A stretch of DNA of 64,000 nucleotides from Gemmatimonadales bacterium (GCA_035602245.1 DATNMO010000020.1:45648-109647); one strand, 5' to 3'; counted from the first letter of the stretch, positions 25,700 through 52,952 are shown. Numbers and translations: made by a program. Notes: a model not told the origin generated them from the sequence alone.

Positions 25700-28246
25700 T
25701 TGACGAGCACAAGTCCCCAATTCGCCCCTCACCCACGTTATAATCAGCACGCAGCCGCTGCCACGCCAATTGTACCAGGAGATCTACTGACCGTACTGGC
25801 CCGCTCCGTCGCGCTCGCAACACTGATGGTCCTCGCGGCCTCCTCCCCGACCGCGGGCCAGGGCACTCCCGCCAGCGGCGAAATCCGGGGCCGTGTGGTG
25901 GACGCCGCTAGCAAGACGCCGATCGGCATGGCCACGGTGTTCGTCACGGACTCCGGCGCGGCAGCTGCGGCGGCCAAGACATCCACGGACGTCGACGGCG
26001 GCTTCCGTGTCGAGGGCCTCCGGCCGGGGCGCTATCGCGTGCGCGTCGTGGCGATCGGCTTCACCCCGCGGCAGCTTGCGCCGATTGAGATCGGTTCATC
26101 ATCGCCAAGCATCGACGCGGGGACGGTAACGCTCACGGCCGCGCCGCTCCAGTTGCAGCCAAAGGTAGTGACAGGGCAGCAGCAGGACGTGCAGCTCGCC
26201 CCGGACCGCAACACCTATGTCGTCCGCGACATGCCGACAACCCGCGGCGGAACGGCACTCGACGTGCTGCGCAACGTCCCGGCCGTCGACGTGGATATCG
26301 ACAACGTGGTGAGCCTGCGCGGCAACTCCGGTGTGGTTGTGCAGATCAACGGCCGCCCCAGTCCGCTGAAGCCGGCGCAGCTCGGCAACTTCCTAGCGCA
26401 GCTGCCCGCGGACATGGTGGACAAGGTGGAAGTGATTCCCAACCCGTCCGCGCGTGACAACCCGGAAGGCGTCGCGGGGATCATCAACATCATGCTGAAG
26501 CAGAACGCCGACGAAGGGACGAGCGGCGGACTCACGCTCGGCGGGGGGACCACTGGCCACGGGGACATCGGCGGCAACCTCGGCTACCAGCGCGGGCCGC
26601 TGTCGTTGTACGGCAGCTATGGCTTCCTGCGTGACAACCGGCCGCGACGCGACACGATCTATCGCGAGAACAGGTATGTCGCCCCGCGGACATACCTGGA
26701 GGAGGAAGGGACTCGCGCGCAGGTGCCGCTGGCGCACACGCTGACAGGCAGCGCGGGCTACGAGCTCGGGGATCACGACGAGCTCTCGGCCGACATGGCG
26801 TACAGTACTCGCACCGAGGCGGAGTCCTACGGCCTCTTGTACCGCGATCTGGACTCGGCGCGCCGTGTCACGGGACTGAGCGACCGGTTCACGCGCGGCA
26901 CGAACCATGAGTTCAACCTCGAGACGACGGTCGGGTACAAGCACGCCTTCGCCCACAAGGGCCACAAGCTGTCGAGCGAGCTGCGCGTCTTCCGGGCGCG
27001 GGAAGGCGGGCCGACCCGCATCGTCGCGCGCACGCTGGCGCTCGACGGAACGCCGAGCGACACGTCGGCCCTCGAGAGCCAGACGGGATGGGAGCACCCC
27101 GATGAAAACTCACTGAAAGTGGATTACGTCCGGCCGCTCTCGAGTCTGCTGCGGCTCGAAACCGGGTATCGCGGATCGCTGCAGCAGTTTCACACGACGC
27201 TGGGGACGCAGGTCTTCGACACGGCGCGGGGCACGTACGTGCCCGACTCTTCCCGCATCAGCGATTTCACCTACGACCAGCGCGTCCACGCCGCATACGG
27301 CATGCTCGTTGCGCAGCGCGGCAAATTCCTGCTGCAAGGCGGCGTCCGCGCCGAGCGCGCCACGACGCGGTTTCGCCTGACAACGAGCAACGCGACGTAC
27401 GACAACCCGTACAACAGCGTGTTCCCGAGCGCCCTCATCGCCTACAACATCGATGCCTCGCACCAGGTGAAGCTGAGCTACTCGACGCGTATCCGGCGCC
27501 CCGACGACACGGATCTACTCGACCCGACGCCGCACTATCTGGATCCGCTCAACATTTCCCGCGGCAACCCCTATCTGAAGCCGGAGTACATCCGCGCGCT
27601 CGAGCTGGGACTGCAGCGCACGACGGGGGGGGGCCGGATGACGATCCAGGTCACGCCGTTCTACCGGCACACGCTCGATGCCGTCCGCACGCTCCGGACC
27701 CTCGACAGCGCGGGCGTCATGACTAGGACGTTCGCGAATGTCGCCACCAGCGACGCCTACGGCACCGACGCCACCGTCGCCTTGAGTGGCGGACGGCTGC
27801 GTGGGTTCGTGAGCGCGAGCGGCTTCCGGCAGGTCAGCAACGCGGCCAATTTGGGCCCGGGGCTCTCTGCCAAGACCTTCGGCTGGACGGCCCGGACGAA
27901 CGCGTCGTTCCGCGTCTCGAGTACCCTCGATCTGCAGACGCTGCTGTCCTATCAGGCGCCGATGACCGTCGAGCAGGGCCGGGTCGCCAGCCGGATGCGG
28001 CTCACCGTCGCCGCACGCCGGAAGCTCATGAACGACCAGATGAGCGTGACGCTGCGCGTGATCGACCCGTTCAACACCTCTCGCGAGAGCTCCACGACGA
28101 TTGATCCGCGGTTCTACCAGGTCTCGGACCGGCGGCGCGCGATCCGTGGGCTGGTGCTCAGCGTCAACTGGAGATTCGGCAAGCCGCAGGAGGAGCATGG
28201 GCGCGATCCGAATGACTTGGGCGGAGAGGTGGGCGGCCCGCCGTAA
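25700..28246 (+). CDS. TonB-dependent receptor (carboxypeptidase-regulatory-like N-domain, plug, barrel)
   Basis: IRGRVVDA..GRYRVRVVAIGF; DVLRNVPAVDVD; KVEVIPNPSAR; RGNPYLKPE; LSVNWRFG. Start uncertain. Confidence 0.9.
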   Translation: MTSTSPQFAPHPRYNQHAAAATPIVPGDLLTVLARSVALATLMVLAASSPTAGQGTPASGEIRGRVVDAASKTPIGMATVFVTDSGAAAAAAKTSTDVDGGFRVEGLRPGRYRVRVVAIGFTPRQLAPIEIGSSSPSIDAGTVTLTAAPLQLQPKVVTGQQQDVQLAPDRNTYVVRDMPTTRGGTALDVLRNVPAVDVDIDNVVSLRGNSGVVVQINGRPSPLKPAQLGNFLAQLPADMVDKVEVIPNPSARDNPEGVAGIINIMLKQNADEGTSGGLTLGGGTTGHGDIGGNLGYQRGPLSLYGSYGFLRDNRPRRDTIYRENRYVAPRTYLEEEGTRAQVPLAHTLTGSAGYELGDHDELSADMAYSTRTEAESYGLLYRDLDSARRVTGLSDRFTRGTNHEFNLETTVGYKHAFAHKGHKLSSELRVFRAREGGPTRIVARTLALDGTPSDTSALESQTGWEHPDENSLKVDYVRPLSSLLRLETGYRGSLQQFHTTLGTQVFDTARGTYVPDSSRISDFTYDQRVHAAYGMLVAQRGKFLLQGGVRAERATTRFRLTTSNATYDNPYNSVFPSALIAYNIDASHQVKLSYSTRIRRPDDTDLLDPTPHYLDPLNISRGNPYLKPEYIRALELGLQRTTGGGRMTIQVTPFYRHTLDAVRTLRTLDSAGVMTRTFANVATSDAYGTDATVALSGGRLRGFVSASGFRQVSNAANLGPGLSAKTFGWTARTNASFRVSSTLDLQTLLSYQAPMTVEQGRVASRMRLTVAARRKLMNDQMSVTLRVIDPFNTSRESSTTIDPRFYQVSDRRRAIRGLVLSVNWRFGKPQEEHGRDPNDLGGEVGGPP

Positions 28247-28287
28247 ACTGCCTTAGGGCTGGCGGTCGTAAATAATCATCTTGATAG

Positions 28288-28689
28288 TTACGCGGATTCG
28301 CGCTCGGAGACGAACCCGGCCGCGCGGAACGCCACCAAGCCCCGGACCGTGACCTGTTCAAGCTCTCGAAACAGGGCCTCGTCGCTCGTCGTGAAGTTGA
28401 AGCACGTCTTGCCCTGCATACGAGCCTGCAATTGCTTGGACATGGTCCCGCGTACGTTAGGGTGGCCCACGCCCATGAGGTGATAGCTCACGTACGCCTT
28501 GCGAATCTCGACCCAGGCAACGGGTATCCGTTGCCGCCTCACTTCCCCGCCCCAAGCCCGCAGCGTCGCCGGGCCAGGACTTGCCTCGAGACCATAGTGA
28601 TCAGAGTCCGCCGAGACGAGAAAATCGGGGGCCAGCTTCCTCAAGATTGCCCTTAGCTCCCTAAAGATCGGTTGGAGCTCTGATGACAC
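28288..28689 (-). CDS. Cassette gene: DUF1801/YdhG-like protein
   Basis: KAYVSYHLM..ARMQGKTCFNF; GTG 9 nt after the GTTAGGC core; stop codon lies within inverse core GCGTAAC. Confidence 0.65.
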   Translation of the reverse strand: MSSELQPIFRELRAILRKLAPDFLVSADSDHYGLEASPGPATLRAWGGEVRRQRIPVAWVEIRKAYVSYHLMGVGHPNVRGTMSKQLQARMQGKTCFNFTTSDEALFRELEQVTVRGLVAFRAAGFVSERESA

Positions 28690-28699
28690 CCGAATCCGC

Positions 28700-29023
28700 C
28701 TAACGGGCAGATACCTCCACATTGGCATCTACCTGTCCGTAATCGATGAACTCGACCGGCGCCAGGCATTCCGGATAGAGGATCGACGCAAACTTCTTCA
28801 CCGCAGCGGACTCGGAATGCGCCCGATCCGCGGCGGCATCGCGAAAGACAAAGATGTGAACGAATCGCGTTGGGTGCGCCAGTTCCTGCCAGACTTCATA
28901 GCGCAGTGTGCCGGACTCATTGGCGCGCACGTAGGCCACGAACTCATGAATGGCCGCCAGACATCGATCCAGCGCTTGGGGACGGACTTCGTATCGAGCC
29001 AGCTGTCTAATCTGCGGACGCAT
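28700..29023 (-). CDS. Cassette gene: antibiotic biosynthesis monooxygenase (ABM)-like protein
   Basis: ANESGTLRYEVWQ..FVHIFVFRDAAADRAHSES; TAG stop lies inside the next core site; start uncertain. Confidence 0.75.
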   Translation of the reverse strand: MRPQIRQLARYEVRPQALDRCLAAIHEFVAYVRANESGTLRYEVWQELAHPTRFVHIFVFRDAAADRAHSESAAVKKFASILYPECLAPVEFIDYGQVDANVEVSAR

Positions 29024-29092
29024 GCTGCTGTTCTTCGCCATGTGCGGGCTCCGTAATCTGCGCGCGCCGCCAGCTTCAGGCGCGTGTTAGGC
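29005..29092 (-). mobile_element. Degenerate attC site (right arm deleted)
   Basis: Minus strand GCCTAAC-ACGCGCCTGAAGCTGGCGGCGCGCG...CCGCAG-ATTAGAC; left arm nearly identical to the complete attCs. Confidence 0.75.
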
Positions 29093-29101
29093 GGCGAGCG
29101 G

Positions 29102-29311
29102 CTAGTAGTGCAGGCGCAAGACAGTCGGTGGACCAGCGCGTGTCGGAAAGATTGCAAAGAGGTCGTCATGCGCCCGAGGACCAATCGTGACCTCCTGTTC
29201 GGCTCCCAACGCTTTGAGGATCATGGGCACGGTGTTCCCGTGACCCACAATGACGACGACGTCCTTCTGATCGAGGTCACGCAAGCGGGTGATAGTGGCC
29301 CATCGATTCAT
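29102..29311 (-). pseudogene. C-terminal remnant of a histidine phosphatase (phosphoglycerate mutase family) cassette gene
   Basis: VVVIVGHGNTVPMILKALG..DDLF..PTVLRLHY is the C-terminal half; the RHG-containing N-half is absent. Confidence 0.65.
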
Positions 29312-29334
29312 AAAACCTTTGCCCGATCGCTCAC

Positions 29335-30663
29335 TCAGTTCATCGTCGCCCGCGGGAGCGGGAAGCGCACGCGCAGGGTGGTGCCGGCCCCCGGCGCCGA
29401 CTCGATGTCGAGGCGGCCGCCGGCGAATTCAGCGCGCTCGCCCATGCCCACCAGCCCCAGACCGGTGCGCAGCCGCTCGACGCTGAAGCCAACTCCGTCA
29501 TCCCTGACCGTGACGTCGAGGGCAACGTCCTGCGCCGTCAGCGTCACTTCGACTTGGCGAGCGCGCGCGTGCCGGGCGACGTTGCTCAGGGCCTCCTGCA
29601 CGATGCGGAAGCAGGCGGTCTCGATCTCGACCGGTGCCCGCGCGTCGCGCGGCGTGGCCGTGAAACGCGCACGCACGCCGGCGCGCTCACCGTGGCGCGC
29701 CACCAGGTTCCGCAGCGCCTCGACCAGGCCGAACTCGTCGAGCAGCGACGGGCGGAGCTCAAAGGCAAGCGTTTGCACCTGTTTGAGCATCTTCTTGATG
29801 ATCCGCATGCTCTCAGGCACGCGCGCGCGCGAGGCGGGCGAGAGCTCGCCCTTGATCGCCTCGAGGTTCAGCGTGATCGCGACCAGCGACTGCCCGAGCT
29901 GGTCATGCAGCTCGCGGGCGAGCACGCTGCGCTCGTGCTCCTGTTGCTCCAGGAGACGGCGCGACAGCGCGCGGTAGCGCTCCTGCGACGCTCGCAGGCT
30001 GTCCTGCGACTGCTGCAGCTGCTCGAGGTTCGTCATCATCCAGTCGACTTCGTGCAGCGGCCAATCGGGCGAGAGGTACTGCTCGGGCGCTACGTAGTAC
30101 GGATTGCGGCAGATCCGATCCCCGATGACCACGAGCGGGTGCACGATGATCATCTCGCGCAGCGTGTCGGGCGTGAACCGCCGCACATCGAATTGACATA
30201 GACCGGCGCAGGCGTGACGTTCCCAGACCCGGTTGAGGTTGAGCCGCGCCTCGAACTCGGCAAGCGCCTTCAGGTCGCCGTTCAGCGTCCAGGTCATCTC
30301 CCCGACAATCCGGAAGCCGGCATGGCCGGCGGTGCGGGACCCGTTGGCATACTGCTCAATCTTCCCCAGCATGTCCTGCGTCTGGAGGCCCTGCGCGAGC
30401 GGCTTCTCGAAGATCTCCAGTCGGCCCTCGCGCATCGCTGCGTCGACGTCGACGCCCTCGGACGCGAGCGCAGCGAGAATGCTCGCCCCGCCGTCGTCGA
30501 CAACACAGACACACAGCTCGCCGCGATCGAGGCCGGCGCGGATATACGAGACGGCGATCGCCACCTCCTCTTCGCGCTGGTCGTACAACGTGCAGACGTG
30601 ATCAGCCGGACCGAGCTGCGCTATTGCTGCGCGAACTTGTTGGAAGCGACTATCGGCATGCAT
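29335..30663 (-). CDS. MEDS-domain sensor histidine kinase (HisKA_3 + HATPase), orphan
   Basis: DHVCTLY, RIVGEMTW, LCQFD; ARELHDQLGQ, QEALSNVARHA, VRDDGVGF, GLGLVGM; GGAGG RBS. Confidence 0.9.
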   Translation of the reverse strand: MHADSRFQQVRAAIAQLGPADHVCTLYDQREEEVAIAVSYIRAGLDRGELCVCVVDDGGASILAALASEGVDVDAAMREGRLEIFEKPLAQGLQTQDMLGKIEQYANGSRTAGHAGFRIVGEMTWTLNGDLKALAEFEARLNLNRVWERHACAGLCQFDVRRFTPDTLREMIIVHPLVVIGDRICRNPYYVAPEQYLSPDWPLHEVDWMMTNLEQLQQSQDSLRASQERYRALSRRLLEQQEHERSVLARELHDQLGQSLVAITLNLEAIKGELSPASRARVPESMRIIKKMLKQVQTLAFELRPSLLDEFGLVEALRNLVARHGERAGVRARFTATPRDARAPVEIETACFRIVQEALSNVARHARARQVEVTLTAQDVALDVTVRDDGVGFSVERLRTGLGLVGMGERAEFAGGRLDIESAPGAGTTLRVRFPLPRATMN

Positions 30664-30727
30664 GGTGTCCTCCCACAATCGACTATTGAAACACTATCAC
30701 GCCTGCACCGGTCCCGTTGAGACGAGT

Positions 30728-30747
30728 GCTTCAGGCGCGTGTCAGAC
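30728..30747 (-). mobile_element. attC stub (left arm only)
   Basis: Minus strand GTCTGAC-ACGCGCCTGAAGC, 7 nt after the TfoX stop, then unrelated sequence. Confidence 0.65.
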
Positions 30748-30754
30748 GGCGCGG

Positions 30755-31084
30755 TCACTTGGCTGGCAATGAAGAAGCGTACTTCGCGGCCACCTGGACC
30801 CATGTCCCGAGCTTCGCATCGGTCTTCAATCCCGCAGGCTCGACCAGGATCCAACCCTTCATCGGCCGCCCGGTAAGGTCGAAGCGTCTGGTGTGGGGCT
30901 GCGACAGCGCCGCATCCGTCGCTTCCGGAGCAAGACGCACGATAAGGTCGGACTTATGCACGCCCACGCACATGTTGCCATTAAGGAGGAAGGCGACGCC
31001 ACCGAACATCCTCTTCTCAACGAGACCTTTGCGCCGGCCCAGCGTGGCGCGAATTCGATCGGCTAACCGTTCGTCAAAGGCCAC
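30755..31084 (-). CDS. Cassette gene: TfoX N-terminal domain protein
   Basis: MAFDERLADRIR..EKRMFGGVAFLLNGNM..GRPMKGW. Confidence 0.9.
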   Translation of the reverse strand: MAFDERLADRIRATLGRRKGLVEKRMFGGVAFLLNGNMCVGVHKSDLIVRLAPEATDAALSQPHTRRFDLTGRPMKGWILVEPAGLKTDAKLGTWVQVAAKYASSLPAK

Positions 31085-31090
31085 GCCGCC

Positions 31091-31504
31091 TCACTGGATG
31101 GACGCGACGTAAGCGCCGGGTAGGCCTACACGCTGCGCCAGGGCGCGAAGCTTAGAGGCATATTCGGCGTTCCGTTCATCTGGCGACGGGGGCTCCGGGA
31201 GATTGAAGCAGAGGGCGGCTACGGTGCCCCCGTTGTGAACAACGGCGAGTACGGGCTCAGGCCGATACGCCCGCACGCTGGGCTCAGCGTACAGCTTCTC
31301 AATGTCAGCGTGTGACAGCTTCATTAACAGACCGTGCACTTCCCCTGCCGGAGTGGGAACGAGCGCGGCCCGCGCTCCGATGCGCAGGGTGAATCCAGGA
31401 ACGGCAGCGGGCCGAATATCAGTAAACCGGACGCCTTTGCCTTCCAGCAATTGCTGATCCATGAATAGCCCGTAGAAAAAGACGTCGAGGCGTCGTTGGT
31501 CCAC
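31091..31504 (-). CDS. Cassette gene: gamma-glutamylcyclotransferase-like protein
   Basis: VFFYGLFMD N-terminal motif, GEVHGLLM. Confidence 0.75.
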   Translation of the reverse strand: MDQRRLDVFFYGLFMDQQLLEGKGVRFTDIRPAAVPGFTLRIGARAALVPTPAGEVHGLLMKLSHADIEKLYAEPSVRAYRPEPVLAVVHNGGTVAALCFNLPEPPSPDERNAEYASKLRALAQRVGLPGAYVASIQ

Positions 31505-31511
31505 CTTGTCC

Positions 31512-31588
31512 TCAGATGCGCCTAAGCCGTGGCGCGCTGATTCATTCCTTAATCTACGCGCGCCGCCAGCTTCAGGCGCGTGTTCGGC
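31512..31588 (-). mobile_element. Degenerate attC site (variant R'' GCCGAAC; R' lost)
   Basis: Minus strand GCCGAAC-ACGCGCCTGAAGCTGGCGGCGCGCGTAGATTAAGGAATGAATC..GCTTAGGCGCA, then diverges. Confidence 0.8.
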
Positions 31589-31633
31589 AGCCCCGCGCCA
31601 TGCGATCCAACCGCTATCACGACAGCAACGCCG

Positions 31634-32062
31634 TTACTTTGACGGTATCAAATCGAACTTGCCGAACGTCTCCTGATAGAAGAGTGCCCCTTCTTTAGGG
31701 TCGCCGCCGCTCCAGTGTTTGTGGCCTCCCGGAATCCGGATGAAATCGCCTGGACCCACACGTTTGGCGCCGGCATCGTCCCTATAGAGGTATGCGCCTC
31801 GTAAGACCACCACCAAAACGTCAGCAGTGTGAGTGTGCAGGCCAGCGTCGAATCCGGGGCGGAACTTCGTAAAGCCTCCAAACGGCCCCGTGAGTGTATC
31901 TCCCCAGACCACAGAACTGGAGACGCCCGGAACCAGCGGCGCATACTTCGCCGAACGTGAACGGGCAAAGATTACGCCTGTGCCTCCCCTCTGCGCAAAG
32001 ACGACAGCCGTCGTCAACGCCAGAGCAACTGAGACTGCAGCGAGCGTCCAAGTGCGCTTCAT
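31634..32062 (-). CDS. Cassette gene: exported cupin-domain protein
   Basis: Signal peptide; cupin motifs LHTHTAD..VLRG and IPGGHKH; GGAGG RBS. Confidence 0.85.
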   Translation of the reverse strand: MKRTWTLAAVSVALALTTAVVFAQRGGTGVIFARSRSAKYAPLVPGVSSSVVWGDTLTGPFGGFTKFRPGFDAGLHTHTADVLVVVLRGAYLYRDDAGAKRVGPGDFIRIPGGHKHWSGGDPKEGALFYQETFGKFDLIPSK

Positions 32063-32096
32063 TTCGACCTCCGGTGTTTTGTTGCCTGGGATGATT

Positions 32097-32170
32097 GCCG
32101 AACAAGAATGAGCACAAATGGAATTCTACCCTAGAGGCCGGGCGCCGCCAGCTGCAGGCGCGTGTTAGAC
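32097..32170 (-). mobile_element. Truncated attC site
   Basis: Minus strand GTCTAAC-ACGCGCCTGCAGCTGGCGGCGCCCGG..AGAATTCCATTTGTGCTCATTCTTG-TTCGGC; near copy of 32575-32676 lacking the right arm. Confidence 0.8.
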
Positions 32171-32177
32171 AGCGGCC

Positions 32178-32555
32178 TCACCGAAAATGCTTCCAGTTCG
32201 CGCCAGCGAACAGGAGGGCCACAAACAGCAGGAGAGATCCGCGAACCGGCAGATGTTGAAGGACGGCAACGGCAGTCGGGATGGCCCAAGCCACAAGCAT
32301 CAGAAGGACGCCGATCCTCCGCTGTCGGCGAATCTGGACCGCTGCAACGCAGACGATTGCACCCGCAAGAACGTTCACTGCGATGAACAACAGCCCGGCC
32401 CCGGACGAAATCGCGGGGATACCGATGGCGAGGGCAGCAAGGATGGTGAGGACCCCAACGACCCAACACAGCGTCGAGGCTATTCGCACACCAGGCGGTA
32501 CCTGCGCCGACTGAGTTGACGGATTCGCTGGCTGAGAAGGAGCTGGAGTAGTCAT
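32178..32555 (-). CDS. Cassette gene: hypothetical 4-TM membrane protein
   Basis: Hydrophobic segments; GGAGG RBS just after the core site; flanked by attC sites. Confidence 0.75.
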   Translation of the reverse strand: MTTPAPSQPANPSTQSAQVPPGVRIASTLCWVVGVLTILAALAIGIPAISSGAGLLFIAVNVLAGAIVCVAAVQIRRQRRIGVLLMLVAWAIPTAVAVLQHLPVRGSLLLFVALLFAGANWKHFR

Positions 32556-32574
32556 GATGATGTCCTCCGCCGCT

Positions 32575-32676
32575 GCCTAACGGCGTGCGCCTAAGCTGCG
32601 GCGCCGAGCAAGAATGGGCACAAATGGAATTCTAACATAGACGCCGGGCGCCGTCAGCTTCAGGCGCGTGTTAGGC
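32575..32676 (-). mobile_element. Complete attC site (102 bp)
   Basis: Minus strand GCCTAAC-ACGC-GCCTGAAGCTG..CAGCTTAGGC-GCACGCC-GTTAGGC; imperfect palindrome with RYYYAAC/GTTRRRY ends and an unpaired base in the L box. Confidence 0.93.
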
Positions 32677-32696
32677 AGCAAGCCTCAACCCTTGGC

Positions 32697-33326
32697 CTAG
32701 TCGGCCACTCCAACGACGGTTCGAACGTAGCGACCATCTGTCAGCTGATCGAGCATGAAGGCGGCGACGTCCGCGCGCGAAATCCGCACGGTCCAGAGCC
32801 AATGACCCACGCGCGGCCCATGGCGGTACTGGCCGCGCTTCGGCCCATTGGTGAGAGCGCCCGGGCGCACGATCGTCCAGTCAAGCTCTGAGGCGCGAAT
32901 GACGGCCTCTTGGCGAATCTTGTCCCAGAAATACAGCGGCACGATGATGGGGCGGACGAACAGGGTGTAGTAGAGTCCCATTTGCCACCAAGCATCGGAG
33001 ATGCCGAGGGCAGTTTCGCAGACGAACCGGCCGACACCGTGGCGCCGCATCGATCCAATCAGATTTCGGGTGCCCTCAGAGAGAATGCGGGTGGGACGGA
33101 AGAACTGTTTGTGCCCGAGAGCAGACAACACGGCGTCCCGGCCGCGCACCGCACGGTCCAAGGACGAGGCGTCCAAGACGTTGCCCAGCACGGTGATCAG
33201 CCCGGGACGAGGCGCCGCCGACGGCTCCTTGCGGACCAAGGCGGTGACCCGATGACCGCGCTGGAGCGCCTGGGTCACGAGTTGCTGGCCAGTGCCGCCG
33301 GTCGCGCCAACGATCAAGAGATTCAC
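32697..33326 (-). CDS. Cassette gene: NAD(P)H-binding oxidoreductase (flavin reductase/BLVRB-like)
   Basis: LIVGATGGTG, DWTIVRPGAL, ISRADVAAFML. Confidence 0.9.
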   Translation of the reverse strand: MNLLIVGATGGTGQQLVTQALQRGHRVTALVRKEPSAAPRPGLITVLGNVLDASSLDRAVRGRDAVLSALGHKQFFRPTRILSEGTRNLIGSMRRHGVGRFVCETALGISDAWWQMGLYYTLFVRPIIVPLYFWDKIRQEAVIRASELDWTIVRPGALTNGPKRGQYRHGPRVGHWLWTVRISRADVAAFMLDQLTDGRYVRTVVGVAD

Positions 33327-33344
33327 AGAAAGGCTTGCTACCTG

Positions 33345-33806
33345 TTAGGCGGCGGGGCGGCTAAGCGCCAACCTGATTTGACTCAAGTGATGTTCATTAT
33401 GAGCGGCGGCGGCGTCGAATTCATCCCGCAACGTGCGCACGCCATCTACACTATGCACGAACTCAAGGTGGCCACTCCGCTCATAGTGCACGCCGGCATA
33501 ATAGATGATTGCGCTGCGAACCGATTCGTAGACATGCCGGGAGATATCGAGCGGCACCTGCGAATAATCGAGTCCCTTCGCCCAGGCATCCTGATCCATC
33601 ACCCATAGGACCGGACGAGGCTCACTGAGCACTCGACGGATGCGATCGAAGAAGACGGTCTCCTGATCGGAGAGGTGGTGGAGGATATAGCTGACTGACC
33701 ACTTGCCTGGCGCGTATGTTCGCGCGAGGTCGCGATGGTTGAGCGAGAAGCATTTCAGCGTCTCGTCTCGGGTCCGTTCAAGCTCTCGAATAAGTTGCGT
33801 GCTGAC
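33345..33806 (-). CDS. Cassette gene: DinB/YfiT-family protein; no canonical start codon
   Basis: Frame open from GTC 33806: TYAPGKWSVSYILHHLSDQE..RIRRVLSEP..DQDAWAKGLDY..HNEHHLSQI. In-frame TAG lies in the core site upstream. Confidence 0.7.
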   Translation of the reverse strand, partial: VSTQLIRELERTRDETLKCFSLNHRDLARTYAPGKWSVSYILHHLSDQETVFFDRIRRVLSEPRPVLWVMDQDAWAKGLDYSQVPLDISRHVYESVRSAIIYYAGVHYERSGHLEFVHSVDGVRTLRDEFDAAAAHNEHHLSQIRLALSRPAA

Positions 33807-33813
33807 TCCCGCC

Positions 33814-33906
33814 GCCTAACGGCGTGCGCTTAAGCTGCGGCGCGCTGAAGAAAGATTCATTCCTTTAATCTACGCGCGCGCCACCAGCTTCAGGCGCTTG
33901 TTAGGC
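33814..33906 (-). mobile_element. Complete attC site (93 bp)
   Basis: Minus strand GCCTAAC-AAGC-GCCTGAAGCTG..CAGCTTAAGC-GCACGCC-GTTAGGC. Confidence 0.93.
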
Positions 33907-33914
33907 AGCCTGCT

Positions 33915-34268
33915 CTATGATGAAGGAAACAGGGGCGCGATCGGTTGCGCGACTCCAGGACATTCGCCGCTCGCCCGTGCTCGGACCTCCAGAATCCGCT
34001 GCACCTCGAAGAAGCGCTGGCCGCCGTAGATGCTTCCCGAGTGTCCCTTGATCCCGCGGAGTCGGACAAACACCGGCTCGTTTGCCGTGGCAGTGGTGCG
34101 GTATCTCGCTTCGAGCGCCGAATCCTGGACTACGACAGTGATCTTCGAATCATCGCACGGAAAGAACGTCCCCGATCCGTCCCGATTGATATACAAGCCG
34201 CGGACTTCGGTCGGTCGGTGACAGGCGACCAGGACCACCGAAAGAACCAAAGCAGTGTGTAGACGCAT
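33915..34268 (-). CDS. Cassette gene: lipoprotein, NlpE C-terminal OB-fold-like
   Basis: Lipobox LVAC; GLYI..GTFFPC..ALEARY..EPVFVRLRG. Confidence 0.65.
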   Translation of the reverse strand: MRLHTALVLSVVLVACHRPTEVRGLYINRDGSGTFFPCDDSKITVVVQDSALEARYRTTATANEPVFVRLRGIKGHSGSIYGGQRFFEVQRILEVRARASGECPGVAQPIAPLFPSS

Positions 34269-34293
34269 GGGCTTGTTTAGGCCGCCGGTCGTC

Positions 34294-34752
34294 TTAGGGA
34301 CGTTCGACACGAACCCAGGTCCATTGCGCCGGGGCGTTTCCCCCGAGCTTCGTGCGAAGAGTGTCCCCCTTCAATCGTGCGACGACCGTGAATGGCGTTC
34401 CTGCCATGACCGCAGGATGCTTCGCGACACTCGGACTGAAGGTGATAGTTGAATCGCGTCGTTCGTAGGTTCCTGCATTCGCTGTAATGCGCAAAAAACT
34501 GAGGCCGAGTTGTTCATCGGTCGCGCTGTCGGAAGGTATCGCCCTAGGGGTAAAGCCTGTGACAAACGTCATCGAGTAGTGCCGCTTCGCAAAGATCAGC
34601 AGGCCCGGCTGGACATCACTCGTGTGATGTCCTCGATCTGCACCGCTATCGACGACCACTTCGATAGGCTTCCAGACGCCTCGGAGGGTTTGACCACAGA
34701 CTGGATTTGTACCTGCGGCAGTGAGCGCCAACAGCGCGATTGTTGATCTCAT
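34294..34752 (-). CDS. Cassette gene: exported lipocalin-like protein
   Basis: GAGGAGG RBS; signal peptide; LRGVWK..ANAGTYE..W.R. Confidence 0.7.
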   Translation of the reverse strand: MRSTIALLALTAAGTNPVCGQTLRGVWKPIEVVVDSGADRGHHTSDVQPGLLIFAKRHYSMTFVTGFTPRAIPSDSATDEQLGLSFLRITANAGTYERRDSTITFSPSVAKHPAVMAGTPFTVVARLKGDTLRTKLGGNAPAQWTWVRVERP

Positions 34753-34783
34753 CGATCCTCCTCGAGGTCTGAACAAACGGGCG

Positions 34784-34890
34784 GCCTAACGGGAATTCGA
34801 GATAACTGTTTTAGACGAATCGCAGTGCATGCTCCCCCGCCTAACCCTACGCTCCTAACACCCAGCCGACGTACGCCTCTTCGGCCTAAC
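34784..34890 (-). repeat. Cluster of GTTAGG core-like motifs at the array head (candidate attI or secondary-site remnant)
   Basis: Minus-strand GTTAGGC at 34884-90, 34839-45 and 34784-90, GTTAGGA at 34853-59, and CTAAAACAGTT at 34804-14. Confidence 0.5.
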
Positions 34891-35305
34891 CCTCCGGCGG
34901 CACCAAATAATCCTGCGCCCCGGCGATCCGCCAGCGCCCGCGACGCTTCACCCAGGTGTCGGTGAACCGATAACGCCGATCGAATGGACCACCCGGCCCG
35001 CGCCCCTGCACCACCAACCATCCTGTCACGAGCGCCGTCGTGCCAAACCGGTGTACGTGCATGTCCTCATTGCGCGCCGCCGTGACCGTGTCCGCTCCCG
35101 CGCCTACCTCGTGGAGCACCTCGGCACGCGTCATCGTGCGATCGTCCTCGGTATAGACGAATCCAGCGGCGAGCAAACGTTGAAACACCGCCGTGTCACG
35201 CCGCACCAACGCGCGCGCCCAATCGTCCTCCAGCCGCAGCAGCGTGCGAGCGTCCGCATCCTGTACGTTCGCGACGAGCAGCAATGCCACCAATAGCGTG
35301 TTCAT
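34886..35305 (-). CDS. DUF4440/NTF2-like exported protein
   Basis: LEDDWARALVRRD..RYRFTDTWVKRRGRWRI; strong RBS. Confidence 0.85.
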   Translation of the reverse strand: MNTLLVALLLVANVQDADARTLLRLEDDWARALVRRDTAVFQRLLAAGFVYTEDDRTMTRAEVLHEVGAGADTVTAARNEDMHVHRFGTTALVTGWLVVQGRGPGGPFDRRYRFTDTWVKRRGRWRIAGAQDYLVPPEG

Positions 35306-35328: not shown

Positions 35329-36777
35329 TCAGGTATTCCGTCCCACCACCCACCTTGCCGCGGACCGCTGCATCAGCGCCTGACCGTGCCAACAACACAA
35401 CACCGGCGCCTCTCCCGGCACCTGCGCTGCCAACCGCGGGTGCGCGAACAAAATCACGAGCTCTGCCCCGGGGGCGAGCCGCGCAAGCTGCGCGAGCGAC
35501 CGCGGGCCCAAATCCGCCCTGCCCTTCCACGACCTGGGCTCCGCATACACGAGGACCACTCGGCTGACCCCGGGGCGACGCCCCGGGGTGAGCGAGACTC
35601 CCCCTCCCCGCAAAGCTCCGTGAAACACATCGCGCGGCGGAATGGTGTACGGTCCGCCCACGTCATCATCTACAATAGAGACACTGAGCGGCCCCGTCAG
35701 CCTCGGCGCCGTCCCACGCACGAGATGCACGGCCCGATCCGCCAAGCCATCCGCAAACCGTTGATGCTCGGCGAGCATGGCGTCGTCGAGCATCCCGAGA
35801 TCGCCGCGCCGCATGTCCCACTGCCGCAGCGCCGCCTCGTATCGCGCAATCGCCTCGGCGGCCCGGTCGGCGGGCACGGCGTCGAGGGCGCGCACCACCG
35901 CGGCCCAATCCGTCGGATACAGCAGCACGTCGCAGCCCGCGGTCACCGCCGCCGCCGCCGCGGGCCCCTCGCCCTGCGCCGCAGTCGCGCCCGCCATGAT
36001 AAAGGCATCCGTAACGACGAGGCCCTGAAATCCCAGCACGTCGCGGAGGTGCGCCAGGATCGGCCGCGAGAACGTCGCTGCGACGCCCGTCCCGTCCCAC
36101 GCCGGATACGCGACATGCGCCGGCATCACGCTGCCGACCCCGGCCACCACCGCGGCCGCGAATGGCGCGACATCCACGCGCTGCAGCTCCGCGGCGGCCG
36201 CGTCCACGACAGGGAGCCCCTCATGCGAGTCGGTCGTCGTGCGGCCGTGACCGGGGTAATGCTTGGCGCACGCCAGCACCCCGTGCTCCTGGCATCCCCG
36301 GATCCAGGCCGCCGCGTGCGCCCCCACGCGCTCCGCGTCGGCGCCAAACGACCGCGTCTGGACGATCGGGTTCCTCGGCTCGAGATCCAAATCGCACACG
36401 GGCGCGAACGTCCAGGTGAGCCCCACCGCGCGCGCCTCCGTGCCCGTGATCGAGCCCGCCGCGTAGGTCGCGTCCAAATCGTTCAGAAAGCCGAGCGCGG
36501 CCGGGGGCGGCAGCTCGGTGAGTCCCCGAAACTGCTGGCCGGGACCGCGCTCCAGGTCGGACGCGAACAGCAGCGGCCGCCCCGCCCCCCCCGCCCCCCC
36601 CGCCCGCTGCTTCAGGTCCCTCGTGAGCGCCCGCACCGCTTGGGCGGTGCCGCCAAACAAAATGAAGCCGCCCACGCCTTCATCGAGAGCGGCCGCGATC
36701 TTGTCCCGCTCATGCGCGAACGATCCGCCGCGCGACCGCAGCGCGGGACAGACGAGCCGCGCCCGCGGAGAACTCAT
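35329..36777 (-). CDS. nagZ: GH3 beta-N-acetylhexosaminidase
   Basis: ASDLERG, KHYPGHG..DSH, VVTDAF; in operon with anmK and murQ. Confidence 0.88.
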   Translation of the reverse strand: MSSPRARLVCPALRSRGGSFAHERDKIAAALDEGVGGFILFGGTAQAVRALTRDLKQRAGGAGGAGRPLLFASDLERGPGQQFRGLTELPPPAALGFLNDLDATYAAGSITGTEARAVGLTWTFAPVCDLDLEPRNPIVQTRSFGADAERVGAHAAAWIRGCQEHGVLACAKHYPGHGRTTTDSHEGLPVVDAAAAELQRVDVAPFAAAVVAGVGSVMPAHVAYPAWDGTGVAATFSRPILAHLRDVLGFQGLVVTDAFIMAGATAAQGEGPAAAAAVTAGCDVLLYPTDWAAVVRALDAVPADRAAEAIARYEAALRQWDMRRGDLGMLDDAMLAEHQRFADGLADRAVHLVRGTAPRLTGPLSVSIVDDDVGGPYTIPPRDVFHGALRGGGVSLTPGRRPGVSRVVLVYAEPRSWKGRADLGPRSLAQLARLAPGAELVILFAHPRLAAQVPGEAPVLCCWHGQALMQRSAARWVVGRNT

Positions 36778-51284: not shown

Positions 51285-51571
51285 CGTACGGGCTGGCGCC
51301 GTGCCGGTAGCACGATAAACGGAGCGTTTGGCCCGGCGCCGAGGGTGCCGAGCGTCACCGCTTCGTCGAGGACCGCTGCGCCCCGGAACTTGACGACGTA
51401 GTCCTGCTCGTCCACGATGGCACGCTTGAGAGCCGCTACCAGCGCGTCGTGCTTCAGCTGCGCGACGGTCGTGCCCGCGTCCACGGGCACCACCACGGTA
51501 TCCCACACGGGCGTCACCATGACGCGCACCGGAAACCGCTCCGCCACCGACGCCGCGAGGGCGGCGCTCAT
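51281..51571 (-). CDS. Ubiquitin-like beta-grasp protein (96 aa), no C-terminal Gly-Gly
   Basis: VRVMV..DTVVVPVDAGTTVAQLK..YVVKFRGAAVLDEAVTLGTLG..FIVL follows the ubiquitin hydrophobic pattern; ATGA/GTGA overlaps on both sides. Confidence 0.6.
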   Translation of the reverse strand: MSAALAASVAERFPVRVMVTPVWDTVVVPVDAGTTVAQLKHDALVAALKRAIVDEQDYVVKFRGAAVLDEAVTLGTLGAGPNAPFIVLPARRQPVR

Positions 51572-51849
51572 GCGACCTCGACTTGCGAGGCGAGCGGCAA
51601 CGTCGAGAAGAAGCGGTCCACCGCCTGGTCGAAAAGGAGTGTCGATGCCCGGACCCGCGTCACGCCCTTCTCCTTGTCCTCCCACGCAGCGAAGACCACT
51701 TCCTCGCCTCCTTGCCCGCGCAGCACCACGAAATTCGGACCGCTCTTTTCCAAGAAGGCGGCGGCATTGGGCACCCGTTCCGCGAAGAACTTCTGGACGC
51801 GCGCCAATACCTCAGCCGGGGGCAGAGCGACCGTGGTCGTGTGGGTCAC
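51568..51849 (-). CDS. Hypothetical protein (93 aa)
   Basis: Coupled by GTGA and ATGA overlaps; alpha/beta globular-looking sequence. Confidence 0.7.
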   Translation of the reverse strand: MTHTTTVALPPAEVLARVQKFFAERVPNAAAFLEKSGPNFVVLRGQGGEEVVFAAWEDKEKGVTRVRASTLLFDQAVDRFFSTLPLASQVEVA

Positions 51850-52952
51850 GGCGTTGGCAGGATCGTGATACCGGTGGGCTGACGTGGCACCGCGGTGCTC
51901 GCCACCCGGACGCGCGTCGCCAGGTCGATGACATCCACGGCGCCGGGATCGGCACCGATGCTCTCCACCGAGATGAACGCCCAGCGGCCGTCTGGGGAAT
52001 AGGCGACGCCATGCGGCAACGGCTTGGACGTGGGGATGCGGGCGAGCTCGACCAGCGTCTGCGCGTCCACGAGCGACACGCTCCGCGCCTTCTTGTTCGT
52101 CACGATCACCCAGCGTCCGTCGGCCGAGGGCTCGACGTTGTACGCCCCCGTCCCGACGGGGATCTCCTTCACGAGCTCGAGCGTCGCCGCGTCGAGCACC
52201 TGGAGCGTGTTGCCATGGTTGCAGGCGACATAGAGGCGCTTGTCGTCGGGCGACACCGACACAAACGTGGGCGAGCAATCGCGGCCTCCCTCCCCCGCGG
52301 CGCCCGCCGCCGGCGCCGATGCGGGGGCGACTGCGTGCATGGCCCCCATGATGTGCCCGGTACCCTCTCCCGTCTTGTGGCGCCGCCGGATGCGGAACGA
52401 CTGCCGGTCGATTTCCAGAATCTCGTCGGAGTTCATGCAGGACACGTATACGAGCGTACCGGCGTGATTGACCTTGACGCCGTGTGGCATGTCGCACGCC
52501 GGCAGGTTCGTGAGCGGTGTCATCGTGGTGGTCTGCACGATGGTGACGACGTTGACCCGGGGGTGGTCGCCATGGAAATCCGAGTTCGCGACGAATGCCA
52601 GGGCGCCGTCGGGAGTCAGCGCGATCGTAGTCGGGAACATCTCGACCTGCGCGCGGCCCAACAGCGAGTCCGAGCCCGCGGCGAACTTCCACAAGGAGCC
52701 GTACGGGGTGCCATGCGCGATCGTCACGTACCATGCCGAGCCGTCGGGCGCCACGGTGACGTTGTGCGGCCCATCGATGTCCACCGGCATCACGCCGACG
52801 GGGACGACCTTGGCCGTCGTGAGGGTGGTGCCATCCCAGACCAGCTCGGTGACGATGTCGCCCGACTCGCTGGCCACCAGGATCCGATAGGACGGAGCGG
52901 GAAGGGTCAGGGCCAGACTGCCGAGGAGTGCGACGGCGGAAAAGAGGCGCAT
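51846..52952 (-). CDS. YncE/YVTN-type beta-propeller exported protein
   Basis: Signal peptide; repeats PHNVTVAPDG, PTTIALTPDG, PHGVKV, PTFVSVSPDD, PHGVAYSPDG. Confidence 0.9.
   Translation of the reverse strand: MRLFSAVALLGSLALTLPAPSYRILVASESGDIVTELVWDGTTLTTAKVVPVGVMPVDIDGPHNVTVAPDGSAWYVTIAHGTPYGSLWKFAAGSDSLLGRAQVEMFPTTIALTPDGALAFVANSDFHGDHPRVNVVTIVQTTTMTPLTNLPACDMPHGVKVNHAGTLVYVSCMNSDEILEIDRQSFRIRRRHKTGEGTGHIMGAMHAVAPASAPAAGAAGEGGRDCSPTFVSVSPDDKRLYVACNHGNTLQVLDAATLELVKEIPVGTGAYNVEPSADGRWVIVTNKKARSVSLVDAQTLVELARIPTSKPLPHGVAYSPDGRWAFISVESIGADPGAVDVIDLATRVRVASTAVPRQPTGITILPTP

Follow-up and report, generated by a model that had tools for sequence, protein, structure and literature searches.

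How does an array of integron gene cassettes come to lie in a bacterial chromosome with no integrase beside it? The question is posed by a 64,000-nt stretch of DNA, hereafter the window, from an uncultured soil Gemmatimonadales bacterium (GCA_035602245.1 DATNMO010000020.1:45648-109647). The window covers positions 45648-109647 of contig C20 in a metagenome-assembled genome (MAG; G000) of 2.68 Mb in 66 contigs that is 97.6% complete. From the sequence alone, a first-pass annotation had proposed a cluster of attC sites lacking an integrase (CALIN) at 28287-34790 in a probable Gemmatimonadota chromosome. Our analysis confirmed this region as a genuine integron gene-cassette array, and the organism names placed the chromosome in Gemmatimonadales. 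The CALIN label fits its operational definition and is right, but it is incomplete: synteny with relatives, a stub of the integrase gene intI and a retained attI-type site show that intI once stood between nagZ and the array and was deleted in place. We consider it very likely that the region is a sedentary chromosomal integron that decayed in situ, leaving a cassette array and a ruined platform at an ancestral locus downstream of nagZ.

attC sites and cassette ends

The array holds about 12 short open reading frames (ORFs) in 6.5 kb, every one on the minus strand, with attC sites 3' of their stop codons; the same pattern recurs in the genome's other arrays. Its G+C content is 0.59-0.64, with the exception of 0.67 in the kilobase containing a sensor kinase gene, and that of the flanks is approximately 0.67-0.72. 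With two complete and four partial attCs and no tyrosine recombinase on the 132-kb contig, it belongs with CALINs, defined as attC clusters without an integron integrase (PMC4889954; IntegronFinder 2.0, bioRxiv 10.1101/2022.02.28.482270). Sites were identified using a covariance model, R1, for which the bottom strands of all 13 complete attC copies in the genome served as training set (alignment A1), with motif searches alongside. Among approximately 11 cassette junctions, two have complete attCs, one lacks R' alone, three have R'' and L'', some of them also the loop, and four are reduced to cores. The individual sites were as follows.

32575-32676, plus strand: complete attC, plus being the predicted recombinogenic bottom strand (R1 109 bits on plus versus 40.7 on minus; fold -30.7 kcal/mol, z -5.3)
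33814-33906, plus strand: complete attC of a short-loop subfamily (R1 87.9 bits on plus versus 32.5 on minus; fold -25.5 kcal/mol, z -3.3)
31508-31591, plus strand: attC of the cupin cassette, lacking R' only, with the variant R'' GCCGAAC (R1 46.7 bits over 31508-31588; fold z -3.2)
32093-32176, plus strand: attC of the membrane-protein cassette, truncated to R'', L'' and the loop and abutting the cupin-cassette start GTTCGGC (R1 23.3 bits over 32069-32170)
29042-29096, plus strand: truncated attC that retains R'', spacer, L'' and the first part of the loop but has lost L' and R' (R1 19.3 bits over 28993-29092)
30726-30750, plus strand: truncated attC of the TfoX cassette, with a degenerate R'' GTCTGAC and part of L'' (motif only)
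28287-28300, minus strand: R''-type core GCGTAAC closing the last cassette at the distal array end, the remaining attC absent (12/13 complementary to the start at 28691-28704)
28691-28704, minus strand: R'-type core GTTAGGC and start of the last cassette (motif)
33332-33356, minus strand: eroded junction where the DinB-cassette R'' (CCCGCCGCCTAAC) is followed directly by AGGTAGCAAGCC, the beginning of the next cassette without its GTT (motif)
34275-34286, minus strand: degenerate R'' (GCCTAAAC) of the lipocalin cassette, with a few L'' bases between it and the ATG of the next gene (motif)

Every coordinate of the first-pass annotation held. R1 scores, folds and core motifs support its complete attCs at 32575-32676 and 33814-33906. 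Its partial sites at 29005-92, 31512-88 and 32097-170 were recovered by R1 (19.3-46.7 bits) and the one at 30728-47 by motif (30726-30750), while the lone inverse cores it saw at 33344 and 34275 correspond to 33344-33356 and 34275-34286. The two loop subfamilies it described are also present, and a third, longer one occurs on contig C15.

The elements consist of an RYYYAAC inverse core and a GTTRRRY core flanking an imperfect palindrome. On the top (minus) strand, the two best copies read GCCTAAC-AC-GCGCCT[G]AAGCTG[A]CGGCGCC, loop, GGCGCCGCAGCTTAGGCGC-ACGCC-GTTAGGC, and the pairing GCCTAAC...GTTAGGC is found in both complete sites and in 11 of the 13 genomic copies. The two extra bases in the top-strand 5' arm amount to two 1-nt bulges on the plus-strand 3' arm, as in the bottom strand of an attC. 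Predicted single-stranded folds contain an R stem of 7-8 bp, an asymmetric 3-nt spacer, an L stem of 19-20 bp and these two bulges. The sites are 90-137 nt long with a variable loop and an unpaired spacer, and they stand at the 3' ends of single co-oriented ORFs. As R1 scores the plus strand far above the minus (109 versus 41 bits), the strand asymmetry is real. In the alignment of the 13 copies, pairing holds in 97% of pair cells and falls to 23-43% when partners are slid; compensatory changes occur in 3 pairs. Rfam at gathering thresholds returned no match in the whole window, which is uninformative because Rfam has no attC family.

Genome-wide, R1 and motif searches placed the 13 complete copies in arrays on five contigs only (C14, C15, C20, C32 and C55), with two fragments on C24 and C52. 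Their stems are nearly invariant, and high attC similarity within one genome is a hallmark of sedentary integrons. Positions 1-141 of C14 and C15 are identical (the start of a cassette ORF) and then split into different attCs; this is an assembly fork, arising from a duplicated cassette or from population variants of the array.

The ends of the cassettes provide a second line of evidence. The annotation had reported complementary ends for the cassettes of DinB (33344-56/33808-20), the membrane protein (32164-76/32569-81), the last ORF (28287-99/28692-704, 12/13), lipocalin (34275-86/34780-90) and cupin (31582-89/32096-103), all found at those positions. We compared cassettes from C55, C32 and C20 of this genome and from arrays of the congeneric genome G011 (L021 and L026). 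In 13 of 15, the cassette start pairs with its own R'' flank for 5-9 nt past the 7-nt core, and non-self combinations of start and R'' show no such pairing. Cassette-specific complementary ends are exactly what a circular cassette intermediate predicts. Through this pairing, the R stem in the excised circle would reach 12-16 bp.

The integron platform downstream of nagZ

Integrases were searched with TIGR02249 (curated cut-off 265 bits) in this assembly and in 61 relatives from the same genus and order. IntI exceeded the cut-off in 32 of the relatives, and the R1 attC family was present in 47. For example, in G011, an assembly of four contigs, a 435-bit IntI at C4:321896-322846 is followed by a co-directional attI and then by R1 sites from 319894 down to 296416. 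(An IS30-family transposase lies within the first cassette of this intact integron, at L021 5995-6948.) The attC family likewise adjoins TIGR02249-positive integrases in G022, G034 and G027, with scores of approximately 435-450 bits in all four genomes. As a result, the attC assignment does not depend on our own model.

The relatives also define an ancestral order. G027 (the closest relative), G022, MAG065 and AG42/G036 (with a frameshifted intI) share the arrangement nagZ, intI, attI and cassettes, and the nagZ-linked site is common to G022, G027, G036, MAG065, G011, G016 and others. In intact congeners intI, attI and cassettes are co-directional. Downstream of the IntI stop, their attI comprises a GTTTAGGC-N6-GCCTAAC box, one or two more GTTAGR boxes and a terminal TTAGACAGGTATGTCTAATTCNC-GTTAGGC where the first cassette starts. 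A conserved motif, GCGTTTTT-N2-3-GGT(A/C)C, is present at both nagZ- and rtcB-linked loci (L014, L018, L021, L027 and L029), where it precedes the intI start by approximately 40-55 nt; it may be the integrase promoter or operator.

The corresponding part of the window contains four features.

35329-36777, minus strand: nagZ (GH3; Pfam), right flank and anchor of the ancestral integron locus, with anmK and a murQ-like gene upstream
34886-35305, minus strand: DUF4440/SnoaL-like gene (Pfam) at the place of the intI 5' end
34859-34885, minus strand: intI stub, 27 nt encoding AEEAYVGWV (22/27 identical to intI of G027 and G036)
34783-34861, minus strand: attI-type site aligned to those of congeners, with GTTAGG boxes at 34851-34861 and 34837-34847, the 3' part GTCTAAAACAGTTATCTCGAATTCCC-GTTAGGC and the crossover core at 34784-34790

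Three points are collinear with the relatives: the nagZ 3' end, the stub and attI. The stub matches the conserved TEEAYV(G/W)WV near the IntI N-terminus and is the only match with at most 5 mismatches in the genome. Between it and attI, approximately 920 bp of intI are absent, such that these 27 nt are all that remains of the gene. The junction reads GGGTG|TTAGG; in G027, TGGGTG occurs in intI and TGAGTG|TTAGAC at attI box 1. The putative attI, at the head of the array, aligns with congener attI sites (G011:C4, 83% across 36 nt; G011:C2, 70% across 61 nt) and ends in the core GTTAGGC. Unlike the attCs, it has no hairpin fold (z approximately 0). A stub of this size is much below what a profile search can detect, so the origin of the array is visible by synteny only.

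The DUF4440 gene occupies the space between nagZ and the stub. It is single-copy and follows yjbQ in the 4 relatives inspected, and this genome's own yjbQ locus (C8, approximately 51400-51900) is without it. The relocation resembles a cut-and-paste of approximately 450 bp, with the stop codon inside a GTTAGGC core. We rejected the possibility that the gene is itself a cassette: it lies upstream of attI, has no attC and a G+C content of 0.66, and is an ordinary gene after yjbQ in those 4 relatives. The nagZ-stub-attI junctions are covered without a break by contigs of two samples, the source sample and an independent one from 2025 (X3). The genome's own contig (depth 16.8) departs from the G027 template exactly at the nagZ stop, into DUF4440. 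Among source-metagenome contigs matching at 80% identity or more, no subpopulation with intI at the nagZ locus was found.

No integron integrase above the TIGR02249 cut-off was detected in the window or in the assembly, where the profile's only matches were the XerD- and XerC-like genes of C7 and C62. PF00589 added two weak phage-type matches on C19 and C32 and none on the contig of the window, which extends the first-pass statement that the 64 kb contain no tyrosine recombinase. Two more attI-type sites, at C14:484-620 directly after rtcB and at C15:726-880 after a MoeZ/ThiF-like gene, also lack intI, and both are preceded by apparent final intI codons (..CTGTGAT..). Integrase loss in this genome appears complete. 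The rtcB-linked intI is intact in G011, G004 and G030. At its nagZ locus, G011 has attI and 8 complete attCs with no intI, and the nagZ locus of MFD02809 is likewise without intI. The absence of intI from several attI loci, in this genome and in G011, shows that integrase loss is recurrent in the genus.

Cassette content and erosion of the array

The genes of the array and of its left flank were assigned as follows.

25700-28246, plus strand: TonB-dependent-receptor-like outer membrane protein gene, left flank, a core gene outside the array (Pfam OMP_b-brl_3, TonB_dep_Rec)
28288-28689, minus strand: cassette ORF of 133 aa from a GTG start, function unassigned (without Pfam match)
28700-29041, minus strand: ABM (antibiotic biosynthesis monooxygenase-like) cassette ORF (Pfam PF03992, E 3e-13)
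29102-29311, minus strand: 69-aa ORF, function unassigned (without Pfam match)
29335-30678, minus strand: MEDS-HisKA_3-HATPase sensor kinase of 447 aa, atypically large (Pfam; G+C 0.676, core-genome-like)
30755-31084, minus strand: TfoX_N cassette ORF (Pfam)
31091-31504, minus strand: GGACT/AIG2-like cassette ORF (Pfam), joined to the TfoX cassette across a 6-nt spacer, the attC between them being absent
31634-32062, minus strand: cupin cassette ORF with a signal peptide (Pfam Cupin_2, Cupin_7)
32178-32555, minus strand: small membrane-protein cassette ORF (without Pfam family)
32697-33326, minus strand: NAD(P)H-binding (NAD_binding_10) cassette ORF (Pfam, E 4e-46)
33345-33809, minus strand: DinB_2 cassette ORF (Pfam)
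33915-34268, minus strand: lipoprotein cassette ORF with a weak NlpE_C match (Pfam E 3e-4, just under the cut-off)
34294-34752, minus strand: lipocalin-like lipoprotein, the first (attI-proximal) cassette (weak Pfam Lipocalin_5)

Pfam supported most of the cargo named in the first-pass annotation (ABM, TfoX_N, GGACT, cupin, NAD_binding_10 and DinB_2); NlpE_C and lipocalin matched weakly, and the 'DUF1801-like' label of the last ORF found no support. The array carries environmental cargo without resistance genes and is an ordinary remnant of an integron, an element of an already known kind. The sensor kinase lies between two truncated attCs with no neighbouring response regulator, and its matches in relatives are weak and partial. 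It probably did not arrive in the array as a cassette. Read-through from the nagZ side, which has the same direction, probably drives transcription of the cassettes themselves.

Syntenic arrays differ in content. In the relative G016, nagZ and the left-flank homologue are on one contig, 9.5 kb apart; the array between them is eroded further and has only DinB in common with the window, at 88% identity. A TfoX cassette 78% identical to that of the window directly follows nagZ in another MAG (L036). These differences show past cassette turnover. Within the source sample, a minor contig path joins 34255 to 34715 (depth 5.8 versus 12.6 for the main path), a weak signal with 30-nt sides. It omits most of the lipocalin gene, between two lipoprotein signal-peptide regions, and may be a subpopulation variant.

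Erosion of the attCs can be followed at single junctions. The membrane-protein attC has 28 nt fewer than its sibling, owing to a deletion between two short direct repeats, CTCGGC and TTCGGC. At the DinB attC, the deletion runs from just after AAC through GTT of R', such that L'', the loop and L' are gone. The ABM ORF runs into the R' core at 28691-28704, which leaves the ABM cassette without any attC. The breakpoints of the membrane-protein and DinB losses are off the G|TT crossover and resemble ordinary deletions rather than integrase products. Insertion of the cupin cassette by integrase within the preceding attC loop was considered and judged less parsimonious than the 28-nt deletion. Joints between attC repeats in Logan contigs (for example, 29092 to 32648 and 32676 to 33815) were also considered as excision products, but their sides are shorter than 30 nt and off the crossover, and they were taken as k-mer links.

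Our data suggest the following course of decay. In intact relatives, IntI would use the attI core G|TTAGGC as the entry point for circular cassettes and would excise them by recombining folded attC bottom strands. In this genome, most of intI has been deleted, with 27 nt of its 5' coding region and attI left behind, and the DUF4440 gene has moved in beside nagZ. Small ordinary deletions have taken away all or part of most attCs and fused cassettes into fixed multi-gene blocks, with two attCs still whole. The array, which erodes in the absence of a cis integrase, is now presumably recombinationally static. Erosion likely came after the loss of the integrase.

Competing explanations and known integrons

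Several observations weigh against an in-situ decay. R1 was trained on this lineage and necessarily matches the sites it was built from, and the intI stub is only 27 nt long. Nine complete, well-preserved attCs on C55 and C32 suggest recent integrase activity. IntI in relatives is often found on 2-5 kb contigs at array edges, and an integrase may be unassembled or unbinned in a MAG of 66 contigs.

Some of these points are shared by a rather unlikely alternative, in which the array is a working satellite cassette bank and an IntI encoded elsewhere acts in trans on attI and the two intact attCs. G011 offers the same arrangement, having an intI-less nagZ attI with 8 complete attCs and an intI at its rtcB locus on C4. 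The 13 complete, very similar attCs kept on five contigs, several at contig ends, would fit such a bank, as would the tiny contigs that often bear IntI in relatives and that binning would lose. However, both ancestral loci are present in this genome (nagZ in the window and rtcB on C14), as is the third attI on C15, and all are without intI; the 97.6%-complete assembly yielded no IntI match. Just 2 of the approximately 11 junctions are intact here, compared with the 8 complete attCs of the G011 nagZ array. The source sample held no contig at least 80% similar to G027 intI at genome depth, a weak test that a diverged intI would escape.

Within the preferred reading of in-situ decay, the manner of intI loss deserves separate mention. 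The losses are recurrent, near-precise and attI-sparing. At the intI-less loci, namely the three of this genome and the nagZ loci of G011 and MFD02809, the breaks fall at most a few bases from the intI stop or at the first GTTAGG box, and the window junction GGGTG|TTAGG is at the canonical G|TT position. The integrase could have excised its own gene by recombining attI box 1 with an upstream secondary site, in which case the loss would not be random decay; we regard this as unlikely. If true, it would provide a defined route from integron to CALIN.

An array that never owned an integrase, its cassettes having been put into chromosomal secondary sites by a distant enzyme, is very unlikely. Such a route has been proposed and demonstrated (bioRxiv 10.1101/2022.09.11.507474), and Cury et al. 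also mention it. Here, it is contradicted by the intI stub directly upstream of attI and by an array that begins at a full attI-type site homologous to the IntI-adjacent attI of congeners, and relatives hold intI at the identical post-nagZ position. We can dismiss as extremely improbable the view that the repeats are REP/BIME- or MITE-like palindromes with no tie to integrons: they are GC-rich imperfect palindromes between genes, but they are confined to a few arrays with none of the genome-wide spread that the first-pass annotation had named as grounds for rejecting its reading, keep a uniform orientation relative to single small ORFs, have strand-asymmetric bulges and cassette-specific end complementarity, and adjoin integron integrases in congeners.

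Among known systems, CALINs provide the general frame. The array resembles them in having at least two attCs with no IntI in reach and, like most, fewer than 6 complete or near-complete sites. Cury et al. 2016 (PMC4889954) proposed integrase loss as an origin of CALINs and found a recognisable intI pseudogene near 5% only. The array agrees with that origin and differs from those 5% in that its own is demonstrable by synteny alone.

The closest system is the ilvD-linked sedentary integrons of Xanthomonas, with lineage-specific intI inactivation (Colombi et al., bioRxiv 10.1101/2025.06.18.660453). Both have a fixed platform beside a housekeeping gene that is inherited within the genus, independent and repeated integrase loss in some lineages with cassette arrays that are then stable, and cargo that consists mostly of small genes of unknown or stress-related function. 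In this genus of Gemmatimonadota, by contrast, the anchor is nagZ, with a second locus after rtcB, rather than ilvD, and the integrase is co-oriented with the cassettes. Moreover, intI in this genome is not a pseudogene but has been deleted down to 27 nt, and attI survives. The co-directional intI, attI and cassettes of congeners recall the 'inverted integrase' group of Treponema type (PMC3575428; gain and loss, PMC3607928), a likeness of gene order only. With the Vibrio cholerae superintegron and its repeats (VCR), the genome shares highly similar attCs and arrays that break short-read assemblies; its arrays are far smaller and split over several loci. The bulged base beside the R box is C on the bottom strand here. 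The same base is G in VCR and aadA7 sites.

Integrons in this phylum were called little documented in the first-pass annotation, which overstates the case. Gemmatimonadota already appear in print among the phyla known to bear integrons (PMC8618304), a large attC element has been reported in Gemmatirosa kalamazoonesis (bioRxiv 10.1101/2022.02.28.482270), and about half of the relatives searched here (32 of 61) encode IntI.

The nagZ locus provides a clean, traceable case of an integrase-less cassette cluster arising from a chromosomal integron. Profile searches for intI pseudogenes would miss such cases, whereas synteny exposes the 27-nt stub and attI. The locus also adds detail for a phylum in which integrons are listed but hardly described, including two ancestral platform loci (nagZ and rtcB), a co-oriented integrase, a conserved attI architecture and an R stem that would be extended to 12-16 bp by cassette-specific pairing.

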